From positions 132,951 to 196,950 of the forward strand of contig CAZKOW010000001.1 of assembly GCA_964554455.1 (NCBI GenBank): a stretch of DNA of 64,000 bases, read 5' to 3'. The notes under the pieces are model-generated. The model was not told the origin of the DNA. It ran no database searches and saw only the letters and a program-made list of their open reading frames with translations. The position numbers and the translations under genes were made by a program. Positions within the stretch are counted from its first letter, which is position 1. The number at the start of each line of letters is the position of its first letter. This document shows, one piece after another, positions 36,257 through 43,926 of this stretch. The stretch is from an uncultured Sphingopyxis sp. Its GTDB lineage: Bacteria; Pseudomonadota; Alphaproteobacteria; Sphingomonadales; Sphingomonadaceae.

Positions 36257-36601
36257 CTAATCCTTTGGCGGCACGGTGTTGCTGGAAATATGGTCGGCGA
36301 ATTTGTCGCGGAAACTTTCGATATAGTCGGCGACCTGCATGTCGGCATTTTCCTTGGCGTCGGCGGGCTTGATGCCATCGGCGCGGTCCAGCGCGACGAC
36401 CGCGGCGTGAAAGGCGGTCTGCTCCGCCTGGCACGCCGTCGTGATGCCCGCATTGAAATCGGCGTCGGGCATCTTGTCCTTCACCGCCTCATATAAGTGC
36501 GCGCGCATGCATTTGAGATAATCGCCGCGCGCCTTGTCAAGCGTGCCGGCGGTCTGAGCGGCAAGCGCCGCCGCGAACATCAGGCTGGTGCCCAGCATCA
36601 T
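36257..36601 (-). CDS. small secreted helical protein, antisense-oriented inside the GTA cluster
   Basis: 114 aa. SD GGGGAG 3 nt upstream of the ATGATG start, signal peptide 'MMLGTSLMFAAALAAQTAG' and two Cys. Native-looking GC3-rich codon usage. Confidence 0.65.
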   Translation of the reverse strand: MMLGTSLMFAAALAAQTAGTLDKARGDYLKCMRAHLYEAVKDKMPDADFNAGITTACQAEQTAFHAAVVALDRADGIKPADAKENADMQVADYIESFRDKFADHISSNTVPPKD

Positions 36602-36647: not shown

Positions 36648-37055
36648 ATGGCAATTGAAAATGGGAGTGCCTTCCTGCTCAAGCTGGGAAATGGCGCTGT
36701 GCCGCCGGTTTACACGGCGGTGGCGGGGCTGCGCACGACGCAGCTGTCGATCAATGGTGAGGGCGTGAACGTCACCACCAAGGATTCGGGCGGGTGGCGC
36801 GCGCTCTTGTCGGGCGCGGGGGTGCGGTCGGTGTCAGTATCGGCGGCGGGCATCTTTACCGGCTCCGCGCCCGAGGCGGCGGTGCGCGGCCATGCGCTGG
36901 CCGGGACCATCGCCGATTATGAACTGAGCTTTGAAAGCGGCGAGCGGCTGCGCGGGGCGTTTCTGGTCACGCGGCTGGACTATGCCGGGGATTATAATGG
37001 CGAACGCAGCTATGCGCTGAACCTTGAATCCTCCGGCGCGGTGATCAGCCTGTGA
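36648..37055 (+). CDS. GTA g9 major tail protein
   Basis: 135 aa. 'GSAFLLKLGNG...YTAVAGLRTTQLSINGEGVNVTTKDSGGWR' is TP901-1-type major tail. SD AAGGAG. Confidence 0.88.
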   Translation: MAIENGSAFLLKLGNGAVPPVYTAVAGLRTTQLSINGEGVNVTTKDSGGWRALLSGAGVRSVSVSAAGIFTGSAPEAAVRGHALAGTIADYELSFESGERLRGAFLVTRLDYAGDYNGERSYALNLESSGAVISL

Positions 37056-37366
37056 GCGCGGCGGCAAATGCGCTGCGCGGCGAGGCGGAGCTGCGGCTGG
37101 CGGGCACCGTCTATCGGCTGCGTCCCAGCTTTGCCGCGCTGGTGGCGGCAGAGGCAGAGCTTGGCTCGCTCTTTGCGCTGGTTGACCGCGCCGCCGATGG
37201 CGCGCTGCGGCTGGACGAGCTGGCGCGGCTGCTGTGGCATTGCATCGACAATCGCCCGCCCGCGCTGACCGTGGCGGCGGTGGGCGATGCGGTGGTGGAC
37301 GCCGGGCTGGTCGCCGTGACCCCGGCGCTGCGCCAGATTCTGATGCAGATTTTGCAGGGCCGCTGA
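37052..37366 (+). CDS. GTA g10 tail assembly chaperone
   Basis: 104 aa. 'GEAELRLAGTVYRLRPSFAALVAAEAELGSLF' is typical of the GTA family protein. Confidence 0.8.
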   Translation: MSAAANALRGEAELRLAGTVYRLRPSFAALVAAEAELGSLFALVDRAADGALRLDELARLLWHCIDNRPPALTVAAVGDAVVDAGLVAVTPALRQILMQILQGR

Positions 37367-37368
37367 CC

Positions 37369-37599
37369 ATGGCCGCGCCCCCGGCGAGCGGTGCGCCCGG
37401 CTTTGGCGCGGCGGCGCTGCGCCTGGGCGGGGCAATGGCGCGGCTGGCCGGATGGACGCCCGCCGATTTCTGGGCCGCCACCCCGGCAGAGGCGGTCATG
37501 GTGCTGAACGGCTGGACGAACGGCGAAGCCAGCGGCGTGGCCCCGCCCGATGCGGCGACGCGTGCGCGATTGATGGAGCAATTTCCCGATGACCGATAA
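37369..37599 (+). CDS. GTA g10.1-like tail chaperone
   Basis: 76 aa. 'LAGWTPADFWAATPAEAVMVLNGW' motif. Starts 2 nt after the g10 stop. Confidence 0.7.
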   Translation: MAAPPASGAPGFGAAALRLGGAMARLAGWTPADFWAATPAEAVMVLNGWTNGEASGVAPPDAATRARLMEQFPDDR

Positions 37600-38170
37600 A
37601 GTGGACGAACTGGTGGTCGAACTGCGCGCCGACAGCAGCGATCTGCGCCGCGAGGTGGCCGCGTTGAAAAGCGAACTCGAAGGGCCGCTCAGCGCCGGTG
37701 CGGCGCGCGCGGGCAGCGCGATCGAGGGCGCATTGCTGCGCGCGGTGCGCACTGGCAAGCTGGGCTTTGATGACCTGAAACGCGCGGCGCTGACCGCGCT
37801 CGCCGATATTGCCCGCAGCGCGCTGGCGCAGGGCATGGGCGCGCTGGGGTTGGGGGCCTTGGGCGGGGCAGGGCAGGGCGGCGGCCTGCTCGGCGGATTG
37901 ATCGCGGGCCTGATTGGTGCCCCGGGGCGCGCGACGGGCGGGCCGGTCAGCGCCGGGCGCGCCTATGTCGTCGGCGAACGTGGCCCCGAACTGTTCGTGC
38001 CGACCAGCAGCGGGCGGGTCGACGGCGGCTTTGCCCGCTCGCCGCAGCCCGCTGCCGTGTCGATCACCGTCAATGTCGCCGCCAGCGCCAGCGAGCCGCA
38101 GCGGCTGGCGCAATCGGGGCGGCAGGTCGCCCGCGCCGTGCGCCGCGCGCTCGCCGATCTGGAGGATTGA
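37589..38170 (+). CDS. GTA g11 short tape-measure protein
   Basis: 193 aa. Coiled N-terminus, a Gly-rich segment 'GALGLGALGGAGQGGGLLGGLIAGLIGA' and 'YVVGERGPELFVP'. Confidence 0.8.
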   Translation: MTDKVDELVVELRADSSDLRREVAALKSELEGPLSAGAARAGSAIEGALLRAVRTGKLGFDDLKRAALTALADIARSALAQGMGALGLGALGGAGQGGGLLGGLIAGLIGAPGRATGGPVSAGRAYVVGERGPELFVPTSSGRVDGGFARSPQPAAVSITVNVAASASEPQRLAQSGRQVARAVRRALADLED

Positions 38171-38173
38171 GCG

Positions 38174-40492
38174 ATGGTGTGGGCGCTCACCCCCGAACGC
38201 GAGCCGCACCAGAGCGCGGATTTCATCCACCGCTTTGATCCGCGCTTCTGGACCGTCAATTTCCCGCGCCCGATGCTGGCCAGCGTGCTGGCGACCGCGC
38301 CCGACGCGCTGCGCGTCGATGCGGTGTTTCAGAACCGGCAGGATCTGTGCGGCCTGATCTGGGAGGCGCAGGACCGGTGGGACCATCCGCTGCTCGCCTA
38401 TGCCACCGCGCGCGATTTTCGCCGCTGCCGCCTGGCGTTTCGCTGGCGCTCGGGCGGGGTCAAGCCGCTGGACGCGGTCCATGGCCCGACGCTGACCATC
38501 GAGGGGCGCGATGCGGCGGGAAGCCCGCGCAGCTGGTATGTCCGCCTGTGGAATTATGCGGTCGGCACGCCGGAGGATGCGCTGGTGACGCTGGATTTTG
38601 CCGCGCTCAACGGCGGCTTCCTGCTGCCGGGGGAGGCCGACCCGGTGTTTGCGGGCGACATCGACCGGATGTTCATCTCGCTCGTCGCGCCCGATCATGA
38701 CGGGTCGAGCGGGCTGCGCCCGGCGGCGGCCGAGGGCTGGGCGGAGCTCAACGATATCCGCTGCACCGGGTCGGGCGCGGTGCTGACCATCGGCGATGTC
38801 CGCCTGCCCCCCCATGGCCTGTCGGTCGCCACCGGCTATGACGATCATTATCATCTGACGCCGCAGCGCGTGGTGCGGATGATCGACGCGCTGGGCTATC
38901 GCGGCGATATCAACCATTATGTCGGGATGAGCCATTTTCCCCGGCTGGGGCGCAGCGGCGGGGTGCTGTTTGCGGGGCTGGAGGGCGGTGCACTCGCCGG
39001 GCCATGCGCGGCCTGGCACAACAGCTTTGCCGCCGAGGCAAAGGCCGCCGGGATGGGCATCATCTGGTCGCTGTCGTTCGAGCTGTTCGATGCCTATTGC
39101 CCGCAGCCGTGGAAGCAGCGCAGCGCCGATGGCGCGCCCGCGCTGACCGGTTGGGTGCCGCCATCGACCCTCCTGTCCCCGGCGCACCCGCAGGCGATGG
39201 CCTGGCTTCAGGCGGTGGCGGCGGCTTTTGTCGGCATGGGCGTGGCCGCAGGGCTGCCCGCGAAGTTTCAGGTGGGTGAACCCTGGTGGTGGACCAACAG
39301 CGGGGGCCGCCTGTGCGCCTATGACGCCGCGACAACGGCGGCGCTGGGGCCGCTGTCGGTCGCGATTCCCGACATTGCCGGGTCCAAGAGCGCAGCACAG
39401 CGCGCGATGCTCGACGCGCTGGGCGCGCTGCTCGCCGATGCAACGGCGGCGCTGGTCGCGGCGGCGCGCGCGGCGGCGGGCCCCGGCGGGCTGGTCAGCC
39501 ATCTGCTCGTCTTTCTGCCCACCGTGCTCGACCCGGCGGCACCCGAATTGCGGCGCGCCAATGTGCCCGTCGGCTGGGCCGCGCCGGCCTTTGATGTGCT
39601 CCAGCTGGAGGATTATGACTGGCTGACCAGCGGGCGCGGGGCCGAAACCGCCCCGGCCATCGCCGCAACGGCGGCGCGGCTGAATTACCCGCTGGCGCAG
39701 CAGCATTATCTCGCGGGCTTTGTCCTCGACGGGGCCAATCGCGGCCAGTGGCGCGCGATCATGGCGGCGGCGGCGGCCGCCATCGCGCGCGGGACCGGGC
39801 GGGTGTTCCTGTGGGCGCTGCCGCAAATTGCCCGCGACGGGCTGGTGATCGGACCCTTGGAGGCACAGATGCAGGATTTTGACGCCGTGGATTTCCCGCT
39901 GGCCATTGGCCGCGCGGCAGAGGTGGTGACCGAATTCGCCACCCAGATTATCGCTGCCCCTTCGGGGCATGAACAGCGCGCGAGCGAATGGGCCGATGCC
40001 CGCATGCGCTATGACGCCGGGCCGGGGGTGCGCAGCGATGCCGAACTGGCCGAACTCGCGCGCTTTTTCCGGGCGCGGCGCGGGGCAGGGCGCGCCTTTC
40101 GCTTTCGCGATCCGCTGGACCATAGCTCGGCGCCAGCGGGCGGCGCGCCCGCCGCGCTCGACCAATTGCTGGGGGTGGGCGATGGGACGCGGCGCGATTT
40201 CCCGCTGGTCAAACATTATGGCGAAGCTGGCGATGCCCAGGTGCGGCGCATCACCCTGCCCGTCGCGGGCAGCGTGGTGGCGGCGGTGGGCGGCGCGCCG
40301 ACCACGGCCTTTGCGCTGGTCGACGATGGCGTGCTGCTGTTCGACATTGCGCCGCCGGGGGGTGCTGCGGTGCGCGCGGGCTATCTCTTTGATGTGCCGG
40401 TGCGTTTTGCCGAGGATCGGCTGACCATTTCCCACGCCACCTTCCGCGCGGGCGAGGCGATCAGCGTGCCGCTCATTGAGGTGCGGCAATGA
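38174..40492 (+). CDS. 565-aa unknown domain fused in frame to GTA g12 (DUF2460 distal tail protein)
   Basis: Single 772-aa ORF. The last 207 aa ('MQDFDAVDFPLAIG...SGHEQRASEWADARMRYDAGPGV') match the start and body of stand-alone g12. An internal GGAGG (39859-39863) plus ATG 39869 precede that part. Confidence 0.75.
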   Translation: MVWALTPEREPHQSADFIHRFDPRFWTVNFPRPMLASVLATAPDALRVDAVFQNRQDLCGLIWEAQDRWDHPLLAYATARDFRRCRLAFRWRSGGVKPLDAVHGPTLTIEGRDAAGSPRSWYVRLWNYAVGTPEDALVTLDFAALNGGFLLPGEADPVFAGDIDRMFISLVAPDHDGSSGLRPAAAEGWAELNDIRCTGSGAVLTIGDVRLPPHGLSVATGYDDHYHLTPQRVVRMIDALGYRGDINHYVGMSHFPRLGRSGGVLFAGLEGGALAGPCAAWHNSFAAEAKAAGMGIIWSLSFELFDAYCPQPWKQRSADGAPALTGWVPPSTLLSPAHPQAMAWLQAVAAAFVGMGVAAGLPAKFQVGEPWWWTNSGGRLCAYDAATTAALGPLSVAIPDIAGSKSAAQRAMLDALGALLADATAALVAAARAAAGPGGLVSHLLVFLPTVLDPAAPELRRANVPVGWAAPAFDVLQLEDYDWLTSGRGAETAPAIAATAARLNYPLAQQHYLAGFVLDGANRGQWRAIMAAAAAAIARGTGRVFLWALPQIARDGLVIGPLEAQMQDFDAVDFPLAIGRAAEVVTEFATQIIAAPSGHEQRASEWADARMRYDAGPGVRSDAELAELARFFRARRGAGRAFRFRDPLDHSSAPAGGAPAALDQLLGVGDGTRRDFPLVKHYGEAGDAQVRRITLPVAGSVVAAVGGAPTTAFALVDDGVLLFDIAPPGGAAVRAGYLFDVPVRFAEDRLTISHATFRAGEAISVPLIEVRQ

Positions 40493-41304
40493 CCGCGCCC
40501 TGGCTTGCCGACCCGCTGGTGGCGCTGGCCTGGTGCTGGCGGCTGGCGCGGCGCGACGGGCTGGTGGTGGCGCTGACCAGCCATGACCGCGATCTGTGGC
40601 GCGGCGACCTTCTCTACCGCGCCGCGCCCGGCATGCGCCCGTCACGCCTGGAACAGAGCGACCGGGTGGAGGCGCACAGCATCGATCTGGCCGGGGCCAT
40701 TACCGCCGACGCCATAAGCGCCGCCGATATTGCGGCGGGGCGCTGGGACGGGGCGATGCTGACGTTGGCGCTTGCCGATTGGGCCGATGCCGCCGCGCCG
40801 CTGCATGTCGTGGCGACGGGTCAGCTGGGCATGGTGGTGCAATCGGGACGCAGCTTTTCTGCCGATCTTGCCGGACCCTTGACCGCGCTCGACCATCCCG
40901 TTGGCCCGGCAACCGCGCCCACCTGCCGCGCCGCGCTGGGCGATGCAGACTGCCGCGTGGCGCTGGCCCCGCGCAGCTTTGTGGCCAGCGCAACGGCGCT
41001 GGTAGGCCGCACGCTGACCATCGCCGCGGTCCCGGCGGGGGAGGATTTTGCCCATGGCCGCCTGCGCTGGCTCGACGGCGCGGCGGCGGGGCTGGTGACG
41101 GCGATTGCGGCGCAGACGGGGACCCAGCTGACGCTGGCCGACGTGCCGCCCGAGCCGCCCGCGCTGCCTATGCGCGTGGAGCTGCGCGCCGGGTGTGACA
41201 AGCGGCTGGAGACCTGCGCGACGCGCTTTGCCAATGCCGCCAATTTTCGAGGAGAGGCGCATCTGCCGGGCTTTGACCTGCTGACGCGCTATCCCGGCGG
41301 ATGA
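40489..41304 (+). CDS. GTA g13 (DUF2163 + BR0599-like) hub protein
   Basis: 271 aa. 'ALAWCWRLARRDGLVVALTSHDRDL' and C-terminal 'CDKRLETCATRFANAANFRGEAHLPG'. Confidence 0.85.
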   Translation: MTAPWLADPLVALAWCWRLARRDGLVVALTSHDRDLWRGDLLYRAAPGMRPSRLEQSDRVEAHSIDLAGAITADAISAADIAAGRWDGAMLTLALADWADAAAPLHVVATGQLGMVVQSGRSFSADLAGPLTALDHPVGPATAPTCRAALGDADCRVALAPRSFVASATALVGRTLTIAAVPAGEDFAHGRLRWLDGAAAGLVTAIAAQTGTQLTLADVPPEPPALPMRVELRAGCDKRLETCATRFANAANFRGEAHLPGFDLLTRYPGG

Positions 41305-41732
41305 CGCCACTGGTGATGCACCCGGGCCCCATCGGCGCGCGGGCATGGGCGGCGGCAAAGCGACTGATTGGCGCGCGGTTCCGCTTGCAGGGGCGCGACG
41401 CCGCGACGGGGCTCGACTGCGTGGGCGTGGTGGTGGCGGCTTATGCTGCAGCGGGCGTGCGCCTGCTGGCCAGCGACAGCTATGGCCTGCGCGGCATGGC
41501 GCTGGATGCGGCGGCGGCGGCGCTGGATGGGGGCGGGCTCGCGCGCTGCGCTCAGCCGCTGGCGGCGGGCGATGTCGGGCTGTTCGCGCTGCCCGCCAGG
41601 CAATTGCACCTCGCGCTGCTTGCCCCCGACCGGATCATCCATGCCGACGCGGCGCTGCGCCGGGTGGTCGGCGCGCCCGCCGCGCGGCTGCCGCCACCGC
41701 TGCTGCGCTGGCGCTTTCAAGAGAGGATTTAG
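41301..41732 (+). CDS. GTA g14 NlpC/P60-type cell-wall peptidase
   Basis: 143 aa. 'GLDCVGVVVAAY' (catalytic Cys context) and 'HLALLAPDRIIHAD' (His). Confidence 0.8.
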   Translation: MTPLVMHPGPIGARAWAAAKRLIGARFRLQGRDAATGLDCVGVVVAAYAAAGVRLLASDSYGLRGMALDAAAAALDGGGLARCAQPLAAGDVGLFALPARQLHLALLAPDRIIHADAALRRVVGAPAARLPPPLLRWRFQERI

Positions 41733-41736
41733 AATC

Positions 41737-43926
41737 ATGGCAACCTTGGTGCTGACGGCGGTGGGAACGGCGCTGGGTGGGCCGATCGGCGGCGCGCTGG
41801 GGGCACTGCTGGGGCAGAGCGCCGACGCTGCGCTGTTCGCGCCGCGGGCGCGTCAGGGCCCGCGCCTCACCGATTTCAAGGTGCAGACGTCGAGCTATGG
41901 CGACCGCATCCCGCGCCTCTATGGCACCATGCGCGTGGCCGGGACGGTCATCTGGGCCACCGACCTGGTGGAACGGCGCAGCAAAAGGTCGAACGGCAAG
42001 GGCCGCCCGAAAACGATTGAATATCAATATAGCGCCTCCTTTGCCGTCGCCCTGTCCAGCCGCCCGATTTTGGCCATCCGCCGCATCTGGGCCGATGGCC
42101 GCATCTTGCGCGACAGCACGGGAACGATGGCCGAAGCCGGGGCGCTGCGCGTCCATGATGGCGGCGCGGATCAGGCCCCCGACCCATTGATTGCCAGCCA
42201 TGTCGGCGCGGACCGGTGCAGCGCCTTTCGCGGCATCGCCTATGCCTTGTTCGAGGATCTGGACCTGACCGCCTTTGGCAATCGCATCCCGCAATTGACC
42301 TTTGAGGTGGCGGCCGATGACGGTGACGTCGCCCCAGGCCTGATCGTCAGCGACTTGACCGGCCTTGCTGTCCCGCCCGATGGCACGCTGCTGGGCGGCT
42401 TTGCGGCGGTGGGGGAGCGGCGGCGCGATGTGCTGGCCCCGCTCATCGAATGGGGCGATCTGGCGCTGCGCCGCGCTGGCGCCGCGCTGCACCTTGCTGG
42501 GCCGGACAGCGGCGGCGCGGCTGGGGCCGACCCGGCGGCGGCGCGGGTGCATGCCGCGCAGCCGCTGGTCGCCGACGAAAGCCAGCGCCGCCCCTGGGCC
42601 AAGGTGCCGGACGCGGTGCGGCTGCGCCATTATGATCCCGCGCGCGATTATCAGACCAGCGAGCAACGCGCGGCGGTGGCGGGGGGCAGCGGCGCGGCGC
42701 GCGCCATCGACCTGCCCAGCGCCTTGACCGCAGCCAGGGCGCAGGGCGCGGCGCAGCGGCTGGCCATGGCCGCCGCCAACCGCCGCCGGATGGTCCTCTG
42801 CCGGGGCGGACTGGGGGCCATGACGCTGCCGCTCGGCGCGCCGGTGACGCTGGCGCTGGCCGATGACCATATCCGCCGCTGGCAAGTGAGCGAGCGGCAA
42901 TTGGGCGATGATGGCGTGCGGTTGACGCTGGTAGAGCTGGAGGCCAGCGGCGCGGCGTCCGCGCCCGCCGCGGCGGATGGGGGCACCGCGCTGACCAGCG
43001 GCGATCTGCCCGCCAGCGCCGCCATGCTGGCCATTTTCGACGTGCCGGGTGACGGCGATGCCGCGCGCACCGCGCCGCTGCGGCTGATGGCGGCGGCGGG
43101 CCCCGATCCCGCCTGGCGCGGAGCCGATCTGTGGTGGGTGGCAGCGGCGGGGGCAGAGCCCGAACCGCTGGGCCGCATTGCCGCAGCGGCGGCGCTGGGC
43201 ACTAGCCTGACCGTGCTGCCGCCCGGGATAACCGCGCTGATCGACCGCGCGCAACCCCTTGATATCCAATTGCTGAACGACGCGATGACGCTTCAGAATG
43301 TCCCCCTGACGGGGCTGGCGAGCGGGGCCAATGCGGCGATGCTAGGCGACGAGCTCATCCAGTTTGAGCGCGCCCAGCCATTGGGCGCGGCGCGCTGGCG
43401 GCTCACCGGGCTGCTGCGCGGGCGGGGCGGCACGGGGACCCCGGCGGGCGGGCATCCCATTGGCGCACCCTTTGTCCTGGTGGATGACGCCGCGCTCTTG
43501 CCGTTGCCCGATGCCATGGCGCTGCGTTCGGTCGGCGGCGGTGCAGCCATTGACTGGCAGGTGCGCGGCACCGCCGTGATGCACCAGACCGCCTTGCCGC
43601 CGGGTCAGCGCGCGTTGGTGCCGCTGTCCCCGGTGCATGGCCGCGCGGTGCGGCTTGCCGATGGCCGGGTTCAGCTGCGCTGGACCGCGCGCAGCCGCGC
43701 GGGCGCGGCATGGCGCGACGGTGTGGACGGCCCGGTGGGCGAGGCGCAGTCGCACTTCGTCATCCGATTCACCGGTGCCGACGGCAGCGCGCAGACCGCC
43801 GAAGCCAGCGCCCCCGAATGGCTGCTGCCCGCCACCGGCTTTCTGCCCGGCTCGACCGCCTGGGTGGAGCAGCGCGGCGATTATGCCGTGTCGCCGCCGC
43901 TGGCCATTGCGCTGCCCGCCGCCTGA
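41737..43926 (+). CDS. GTA g15 host-specificity (megatron-like) protein, short form
   Basis: 729 aa. Gly-rich N-terminus 'MATLVLTAVGTALGGPIGGALGALLG' and 'DRIPRLYGTMRVAGTVIWATD', 'FRGIAYALFEDLDLTAFGNRIPQLTFEV'. Confidence 0.85.
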   Translation: MATLVLTAVGTALGGPIGGALGALLGQSADAALFAPRARQGPRLTDFKVQTSSYGDRIPRLYGTMRVAGTVIWATDLVERRSKRSNGKGRPKTIEYQYSASFAVALSSRPILAIRRIWADGRILRDSTGTMAEAGALRVHDGGADQAPDPLIASHVGADRCSAFRGIAYALFEDLDLTAFGNRIPQLTFEVAADDGDVAPGLIVSDLTGLAVPPDGTLLGGFAAVGERRRDVLAPLIEWGDLALRRAGAALHLAGPDSGGAAGADPAAARVHAAQPLVADESQRRPWAKVPDAVRLRHYDPARDYQTSEQRAAVAGGSGAARAIDLPSALTAARAQGAAQRLAMAAANRRRMVLCRGGLGAMTLPLGAPVTLALADDHIRRWQVSERQLGDDGVRLTLVELEASGAASAPAAADGGTALTSGDLPASAAMLAIFDVPGDGDAARTAPLRLMAAAGPDPAWRGADLWWVAAAGAEPEPLGRIAAAAALGTSLTVLPPGITALIDRAQPLDIQLLNDAMTLQNVPLTGLASGANAAMLGDELIQFERAQPLGAARWRLTGLLRGRGGTGTPAGGHPIGAPFVLVDDAALLPLPDAMALRSVGGGAAIDWQVRGTAVMHQTALPPGQRALVPLSPVHGRAVRLADGRVQLRWTARSRAGAAWRDGVDGPVGEAQSHFVIRFTGADGSAQTAEASAPEWLLPATGFLPGSTAWVEQRGDYAVSPPLAIALPAA

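Follow-up and report, generated by a model that had tools for sequence, protein, structure and literature searches.

Gene transfer agents (GTAs) are domesticated phage-like particles and form a major route of gene exchange in the Alphaproteobacteria, and to our knowledge everything that is known about their structure comes from RcGTA of Rhodobacter. Here we describe a tail-tip gene in a 64-kb stretch of DNA, hereafter called the window (64,000 nucleotides, contig CAZKOW010000001.1, positions 132,951 to 196,950), from an uncultured Sphingopyxis sp. The locus is g12 of the head-tail cluster of an RcGTA-type GTA in a Sphingomonadales genome and lies between the genes of the tape measure (g11) and of the baseplate hub (g13). 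Its product is a distal tail protein (Dit) that carries a large N-terminal module related to the tail sheath of coliphage N4, and an internal translation start at the junction of the two parts probably gives rise to a second, plain Dit.

The gene forms one long open reading frame (ORF) on the plus strand which, according to the ORF list and direct reading of the sequence, extends from 38174 to 40492 and comprises 772 codons and a stop codon. The frame is not interrupted by an internal stop, as an earlier sequence-only reading of this DNA had stated. The G+C content at third codon positions (GC3) ranges from 0.73 to 0.87 from one end of the frame to the other and stays high across the junction; because it is high over the whole length, both the module part and the Dit part appear to be coding. 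The start codon ATG at 38174 is preceded, at a distance of 7 nt, by the Shine-Dalgarno (SD) sequence GGAGGA (38161-38166, plus strand) with an anti-SD duplex energy of −9.3 kcal/mol. A second start codon, ATG at 39869-39871 (plus strand), lies in frame inside the long ORF and encodes Met566. It follows a GGAGG at 39859-39863 (plus strand) with a spacer of 5 nt, as the same reading had noted, so that a properly spaced SD and an in-frame start are present inside the ORF. The duplex energy of this internal SD equals that of the long form; the two are the joint strongest in the cluster and exceed all its other starts. The nested ORF that begins here (39869-40492, plus strand) comprises 207 aa (M566-Q772) plus stop, the size of a stand-alone Dit. 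Directly upstream lies an acidic and variable inter-domain linker (aa 557-565; 39842-39868, plus strand), with a mean pairwise identity of 49% and a length that differs among relatives. The string GGAGG-N5-RTG occurs three times on both strands of the window, compared with 4.5 occurrences expected from shuffling, and the chance that it falls in frame at the domain boundary is ~1e-4.

The last 207 aa of the protein are a complete RcGTA-type Dit of the Rcc01695 family (DUF2460). The DUF2460 domain (aa 571-771; 39884-40486, plus strand) matches PF09343 (DUF2460/TIGR02217) with E = 5e-68 and a score of 228.9 bits against a cut-off of 30.4, and the whole model is covered (2-205 of 205). The Dit of RcGTA (6TBA/6TEH, 210 aa) aligns with E = 8e-41 between residues 569-771 of the query and residues 3-209 of the chain, which places its residue 3 opposite our residue 569, and the Dit of roseophage R4C (8GTC) matches with E = 2e-36. 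The stand-alone Dit of the Rhodobacter phage RcDormio begins with MAFDEIQFP and the product starting at M566 would begin with MQDFDAVDFP. From the Dit alignments and the RcDormio N-terminus it follows that the internal Met lies at most one residue from the natural start of a stand-alone g12, in agreement with the earlier claim that the final 207 aa begin where stand-alone g12 proteins begin. With the full DUF2460 model and the length of a stand-alone Dit, the short product would be a complete and autonomous folding unit. In RcGTA six copies of the Dit form a ring by which the tail tube is closed and the hub/megatron docked; its N-terminus (Ala2), its long loops and its C-terminus touch the three-fold hub/megatron complex, and odd and even subunits adopt different conformations, which resolves the 6-to-3 mismatch (PMC7296036).

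The 565 aa upstream of the junction had been described from the sequence as being without a motif that could be named. Two Pfam families are matched here, both in the expected order and against a cut-off of 27 bits: NCTSP_N (PF23844; aa 18-207, 38225-38794, plus strand) with E = 4.3e-97 and 323 bits, and TIM-barrel_NCTSP (PF23845; aa 212-556, 38807-39841, plus strand) with E = 3.3e-155 and 517 bits. The latter match bears out the guess of a TIM-barrel fold that had been made for this part. The assignment to the family is based on Pfam and on sequence matches in the PDB, where N4 gp64 (9LC0_M) is found with E = 1e-34 in a single-sequence comparison and 4e-82 with a profile (aa 274-564), and N4 gp65 (9LC0_I) with E = 7e-16 and, with a profile, 6.5e-36 (aa 18-91 and 197-274). 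The NCTSP_N domain aligns with gp65 residues 56-129. Judged by these sequence matches, the 565-aa part ahead of the junction is a homolog of gp65 and gp64, the proteins of the non-contractile sheath of coliphage N4. A relation to PF13547 (GTA_TIM), suggested earlier as a comparison, is not supported: four module sequences gave no Pfam match to it at E ≤ 10, and an hhalign comparison with the PF13547-bearing megatron of RcDormio returned a probability of 0.4%.

The module is widespread and occurs in many architectures. We found 627 relatives among 1.8 billion representative proteins; they include stand-alone proteins of 572-640 aa, fusions with DUF2460 of about 770-781 aa, and modules embedded in proteins of 1000-2900 aa, and the module is also joined to other, unrelated C-terminal domains (P0123, P0129, P0132, P0122 and P0124). 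Since the attached partner varies between elements, the NCTSP module can be regarded as a mobile tail-decoration cassette. It is present in 326 phage records, among them N4-like and rV5/phi92-like phages, and in the latter it is annotated as lateral tail fibre or “tail fibre with glycosidase activity”. In an alignment of 15 sequences that includes diverse homologs, the acidic residues D224, E303, E369, D384, D474, E479, D482 and D555 are invariant. The TIM-barrel fold, these invariant acidic residues and the glycosidase-type annotations in phages suggest a glycan-binding or glycan-cleaving role of the module, which is unproven. No second gene of the NCTSP family came up when the main plus-strand ORFs, beginning with the terminase and ending with the DUF2793 gene, were scanned with Pfam, and the smaller ORFs of the g6-g8 region had no matches. 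No pre-fusion state in a phage was found among the best 80 IMG/VR viral-contig matches to the module, all of which are Sphingomonadales GTA regions with 60-72% identity. These 80 best contigs (L081-L160) are GTA clusters of 13-25 kb, which means that GTA regions are being catalogued as viruses in IMG/VR.

The fusion is found throughout the Sphingomonadales. More than 5000 homologs are found in the databases, and the 120 that rank highest all have a length of 770-784 aa and the identical three Pfam domains. A scan with one genome per species yielded 564 relatives, the best 80 of which are full-length matches with 56-69% identity from Sphingopyxis, Sphingobium, Sphingomonas, Sphingorhabdus, Parasphingorhabdus, Parasphingopyxis, Blastomonas and other Sphingomonadales; Thermaurantiacus carries a member that is 53% identical. 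For the comparisons that follow we used 160 sequences, namely these best 80 species relatives, 79 usable sequences of the 80 IMG/VR contigs, and the window itself. The frame is open across the junction in all 160. Mean pairwise identity amounts to 69% for the NCTSP_N domain, 66% for the TIM barrel and 63% for the Dit domain, compared with the far lower value of the linker given above, and the module is hence at least as conserved as the Dit domain. The start of the long form is conserved as well: M1, W3 and L5 are invariant in an alignment of 28 sequences, the start codon stands directly after the g11 stop or overlaps it, and a purine-rich SD precedes it in most of the 49 loci with a locatable start. 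Taken together, the sequence comparison shows that the fusion is real, ancestral and order-wide in the Sphingomonadales and argues that it is under selection. Two full-length fusions with 61-62% identity (L019 and L079) stand in assemblies that bear the names Acidovorax delafieldii CCH4-A2 and Arthrobacter sp. TPD3018; contamination or mislabelling of these two assemblies is the most likely explanation, rather than a genuine occurrence outside the Sphingomonadales.

The internal start is conserved at the level of both the codon and the SD. At the alignment position of M566, 59 of the 160 sequences have ATG and 101 have GTG, and none has any other codon; a single apparent GCG at this position was due to a shift in the MAFFT alignment. 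A neighbour-joining tree of 81 species requires the codon to have switched between ATG and GTG at least 20 times independently. The junction is also the sole column with 100% GTG among 83 Val-rich columns, for which the mean is 58%. An SD core, defined as GGAG, GAGG or AGGA located 4-16 nt 5' of the codon, is present upstream of the junction codon in 96% of the 81 species; the background is 9% when all in-frame codons are counted and 11% for the remaining in-frame ATG or GTG codons. The mean duplex energy with the 3' end of the 16S rRNA is −9.9 kcal/mol at the junction versus −3.5 kcal/mol. The consensus of the 81 species at the junction reads GGGGAGGAT-GAN-[A/G]TG, with GGAGG at the 5-nt spacing in 48 of them. 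The peptide encoded by this stretch is far less uniform, since 45 different tetrapeptides are encoded at the SD among the 81 species, for example GEDD, QEDA, AGDD, LEAQ, KEGD, REAA and GASA. The base at position −10, which is the third base of a GGG glycine codon in the common G-E-D linker, is a G in 79% of the species, while GGG makes up 34% of the glycine codons elsewhere in the fusion ORFs. In the whole alignment the junction SD is the best-conserved SD-like site of the entire ORF (94%). Start codon and SD appear, on this comparative evidence, to be kept beyond what the encoded amino acids require, with a caveat on Met/Val-exchanging columns that is discussed below, and the SD motif is the stronger evidence for an internal start than the conservation of the codon.

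We propose that both starts are used and that the gene gives rise to two products, a decorated Dit of ~83 kDa and a plain Dit of ~22 kDa, and we estimate the probability of this reading at roughly 0.65. The nested products that had been suggested from the sequence of the window thereby gain comparative support from the invariant ATG/GTG, the SD and the variable linker. Several observations weigh against our proposal. The argument for two products derives from sequence conservation only. The control columns at aa 203 and 210, which likewise exchange Met and Val, are 90-95% GTG; because ATG and GTG are one transition apart, such columns are GTG-rich regardless, and the codon argument taken alone is weaker than the background of 58% implies. 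Other conserved amino-acid motifs in the ORF yield SD-like strings in 75-84% of the sequences. The predicted RNA accessibility at the internal SD and start is 0.38, compared with 0.375 at random positions of the ORF. An AlphaFold2 model of the full protein calculated with 28 close homologs was unusable (mean pLDDT 53, pTM 0.46). In the sheath protein of the N4-like phage phiAxp-3, the receptor is bound by residues 795-1195, and the stretch with homology to the module lies elsewhere (PMC5862860). Since the binding region lies outside the homologous part, a receptor-binding or enzymatic role of the module is unproven.

These points lend themselves to a different explanation, which we regard as possible and clearly less probable than the use of both starts, namely that only the long fusion is made and that the internal SD and NTG codon are either a relic of the ancestral g12 start or an SD-like pause site with Met or Val kept for protein reasons. 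The site is located exactly where the ancestral start is expected, and the GTG-richness of the Met/Val columns, the further conserved SD-like strings within the ORF and the accessibility, which is not raised at the internal site, would all be in line with it. A relic, however, would be expected to decay neutrally in a linker of such low identity and variable length, yet the SD is the best conserved of all such sites and is maintained through many different peptides. A pause site does not need an NTG codon 5 nt downstream. If Met and Val were tolerated at the protein level, Ile, Leu or other Val codons would be expected, as in the control columns, which admit other codons and have an upstream SD in 10% (aa 203) and 5% (aa 210) of the sequences; at the junction such codons occur in 0 of 160. 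It is improbable, in our estimation, that the short Dit is the sole subunit of the ring and the long form a minor or accessory protein, for example a soluble or loosely attached depolymerase that docks elsewhere or is cleaved after assembly. The occurrence of the module as a stand-alone protein and on several unrelated C-terminal domains is typical of exchangeable tail accessory proteins, and the engagement of the RcGTA Dit N-terminus with the hub/megatron would also fit such a role; the strict order-wide covalent fusion argues that tethering to the Dit fold matters, and a second docking site is not known. That the long ORF is an artefact, in which a module gene and g12 were joined by a sequencing or assembly error hiding a stop or a frameshift, has a negligible probability. 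Only the presence of an SD and ATG at the junction would speak for it, and it is opposed by the continuous frame that 160 of 160 independent assemblies and over 5000 database proteins share, as well as by the GC3 that is high across the junction. The order-wide conservation of the fusion thus excludes the sequencing error that had been considered as an objection when only the sequence of the window was at hand.

The genes around g12 follow the order of the RcGTA cluster, with terminase, portal, protease, capsid, tail tube, chaperone, tape measure protein, hub, peptidase, megatron and DUF2793 protein, and the synteny of g9-g15 is kept in 64-78 of 80 related loci. The large terminase is encoded at 27231-28574, the portal at about 29438-30592, the tail tube at 36648-37055 and the chaperone at 37052-37366. 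Directly upstream of the fusion gene, a g11-like tape measure protein of 193 aa (37589-38170, plus strand, with the stop TGA at 38168-38170) was assigned by position and length; this ORF has no Pfam match, and a g11-like ORF stands directly 5' of the fusion gene in 74 of 80 related loci. The start of the baseplate hub gene g13 (40489-41304, plus strand; PF09931 and PF09356) overlaps the g12 stop in an ATGA. It is followed by g14 (41301-41732, plus strand), a peptidase-like protein of 143 aa that was assigned mainly by position, with a weak NlpC/P60 similarity of E = 0.009 below the Pfam cut-off. The g14 start has essentially no SD (−1.1 kcal/mol) and overlaps with the stop of g13, and this points to a coupled translation of the two genes.

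The megatron gene g15 (41737-43926, plus strand) encodes a short form of 729 aa that matches only PF13550 and PF23666 and has no GTA_TIM domain. Its alignment with the R4C megatron covers residues 13-234 and 996-1390 of the latter, and the short form lacks ~760 residues from the centre. The megatrons of RcGTA, R4C and RcDormio possess this central part with GTA_TIM, which in RcDormio (1330 aa) occupies residues 455-751. Compared with RcGTA of Rhodobacter, g12 exceeds its counterpart by about 565 aa and g15 falls short by about 575 aa, a loss that nearly matches the gain in g12. In related Sphingomonadales loci the g15 alignments span about 690-737 residues, which is consistent with a similarly short g15 in these relatives. 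Differences in the length of g12 and g15 in Sphingomonadales have been remarked on in passing (PMC7360931).

Some further genes of the cluster deserve mention. An ORF of 114 aa on the minus strand (36257-36601) lies immediately 5' of g9 (36648) within the otherwise co-directional cluster. Its product has a hydrophobic, signal-peptide-like N-terminus and matches no Pfam family, the GC3 in the frame of this ORF is 0.81, and an ORF occurs at the same place and in the same orientation in 32 of 80 related loci, with 42-45% identity among the matches listed. Downstream of the capsid gene, an ORF of 547 aa (33025-34668, plus strand) contains a Peptidase_S74 intramolecular-chaperone domain. This domain is typical of tail-fibre and spike proteins, and within the cluster the ORF may thus encode a fibre or a head spike. 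A DUF3800 gene of 253 aa (28716-29477, plus strand) lies between the large terminase and the portal genes.

According to our proposal that both starts are used, one mRNA would be translated into two proteins. The ~83-kDa form would start at ATG 38174 with its own SD directly after the g11 stop, and its module would be fixed at the tail tip through the Dit domain, whereas the ~22-kDa plain Dit would start from the conserved internal SD and the ATG/GTG at 39869. We speculate that long and short subunits occur together in the Dit hexamer, in that some positions of the ring may need a free N-terminus and others can bear the extension. A 565-aa extension on all six subunits would have to exit the hub/megatron interface, a problem that subunits with a free N-terminus would solve. 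The TIM-barrel modules might then surround the tail tip as a collar and occupy room that the shortened megatron has vacated, where they could bind or cleave surface polysaccharide and functionally replace the TIM domain that the Sphingomonadales megatron lacks. The complete picture, a mixed ring of nested isoforms (for instance three long and three short subunits in alternation, matching the six-fold tail to the three-fold baseplate) together with an N4-type collar that takes over the glycan function of the lost megatron TIM domain, is tentative, and we consider it doubtful as a whole. If it were true, the ring would be the first genetically programmed heteromeric Dit, and ring and collar together the first N4-sheath-like architecture on a long-tailed particle.

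Our findings indicate that the Sphingomonadales have, as a whole order, re-engineered the tail tip of their GTA, with a megatron reduced by about 575 aa including the TIM domain and a Dit that has acquired a module of 565 aa whose origin lies in another lineage of phage tail proteins. From the conserved internal start one can predict how a three-fold baseplate could accommodate a six-fold ring that bears bulky decorations at its N-termini. Current annotation gives only the long product, as “DUF2460 domain-containing protein”, and hides both the module and the probable second product. In the literature we found no description of the domain content of the g12 fusion, nor of an internal start. 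The fusion as such is visible in databases; the order-wide internal start and the complementary loss of the megatron TIM domain appear to be undescribed.

Compared with g12 of RcGTA (Rcc01695) and the Dit of R4C, the C-terminal 207 aa align end to end, the gene likewise lies between tape measure and hub, and the nested ORF of 207 aa is close in length to the stand-alone proteins of 210 and 208 aa. The N-terminal extension of 565 aa in the Sphingomonadales gene is lacking in the GTAs of Rhodobacterales and in related phages, and the Sphingomonadales gene has two conserved translation starts.

Relatives of the extension with a known structure are N4 gp65 and gp64 (PDB 9LC0, 9YF4/5), which share the NCTSP_N domain and the TIM-barrel module. 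The motifs GYDDxY, FQ(V/I)GEPWWW, (L/V)Q(L/I)EDYDW and RDG are conserved in gp64 or gp65. In the N4 sheath, gp65-gp64 heterodimers surround the tail tube in a six-fold array, and it is gp65 that binds the receptor (PMC13434306). The matching segments in N4 reside on two chains, gp65 with the N-domain and the first strands of the barrel and gp64 with the remaining barrel over aa 279-559, and thus correspond to consecutive parts of the GTA module, which is a single chain anchored by a siphovirus-type Dit. From this arrangement, the N4 heterodimer may be a split or duplicated version of the module that is single-chain in GTAs and rV5-like phages. Further differences are that gp65 has ~900 additional residues, which hold the plug and bind the receptor, and that N4 is a podovirus, whereas the Sphingomonadales particle is a GTA with a long non-contractile tail. 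The GTA_TIM domain (PF13547) of the megatron g15 resembles the module in being a TIM-barrel-type domain at the tip of an RcGTA-like tail. It has no detectable homology to the g12 module, and it is the Sphingomonadales megatron that lacks PF13547 while the Dit of the same particle gains a TIM barrel.

The ‘evolved’ Dits of Gram-positive siphophages contain a carbohydrate-binding module that is inserted inside the C-terminal (galectin-like) domain. What they share with the Sphingomonadales protein is a tail-tip Dit with an additional module that is probably directed at glycans. In the latter, however, the module precedes the whole Dit and has a TIM-barrel fold instead of being a carbohydrate-binding module, and we know of no nested internal start described for ‘evolved’ Dits. 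The resemblance is functional only, and the Sphingomonadales g12 is not an ‘evolved’ Dit in the established sense. With regard to the two starts, phage genes with dual products are known, either through in-frame internal starts, as in lambda C/Nu3 and T7 gene 4A/4B, or through frameshifts that produce decorated subunits, as in SPP1 gp17.1/gp17.1* and T7 10A/10B. Such genes yield two versions of an assembly subunit, either a complete one and a shorter one or a plain one and a decorated one, and thereby set a mixed stoichiometry. The Sphingomonadales gene, for which the two products are predicted from sequence conservation, differs from these in its polarity: the short form would be the C-terminal core, and the long form would add the decoration at the N-terminus.

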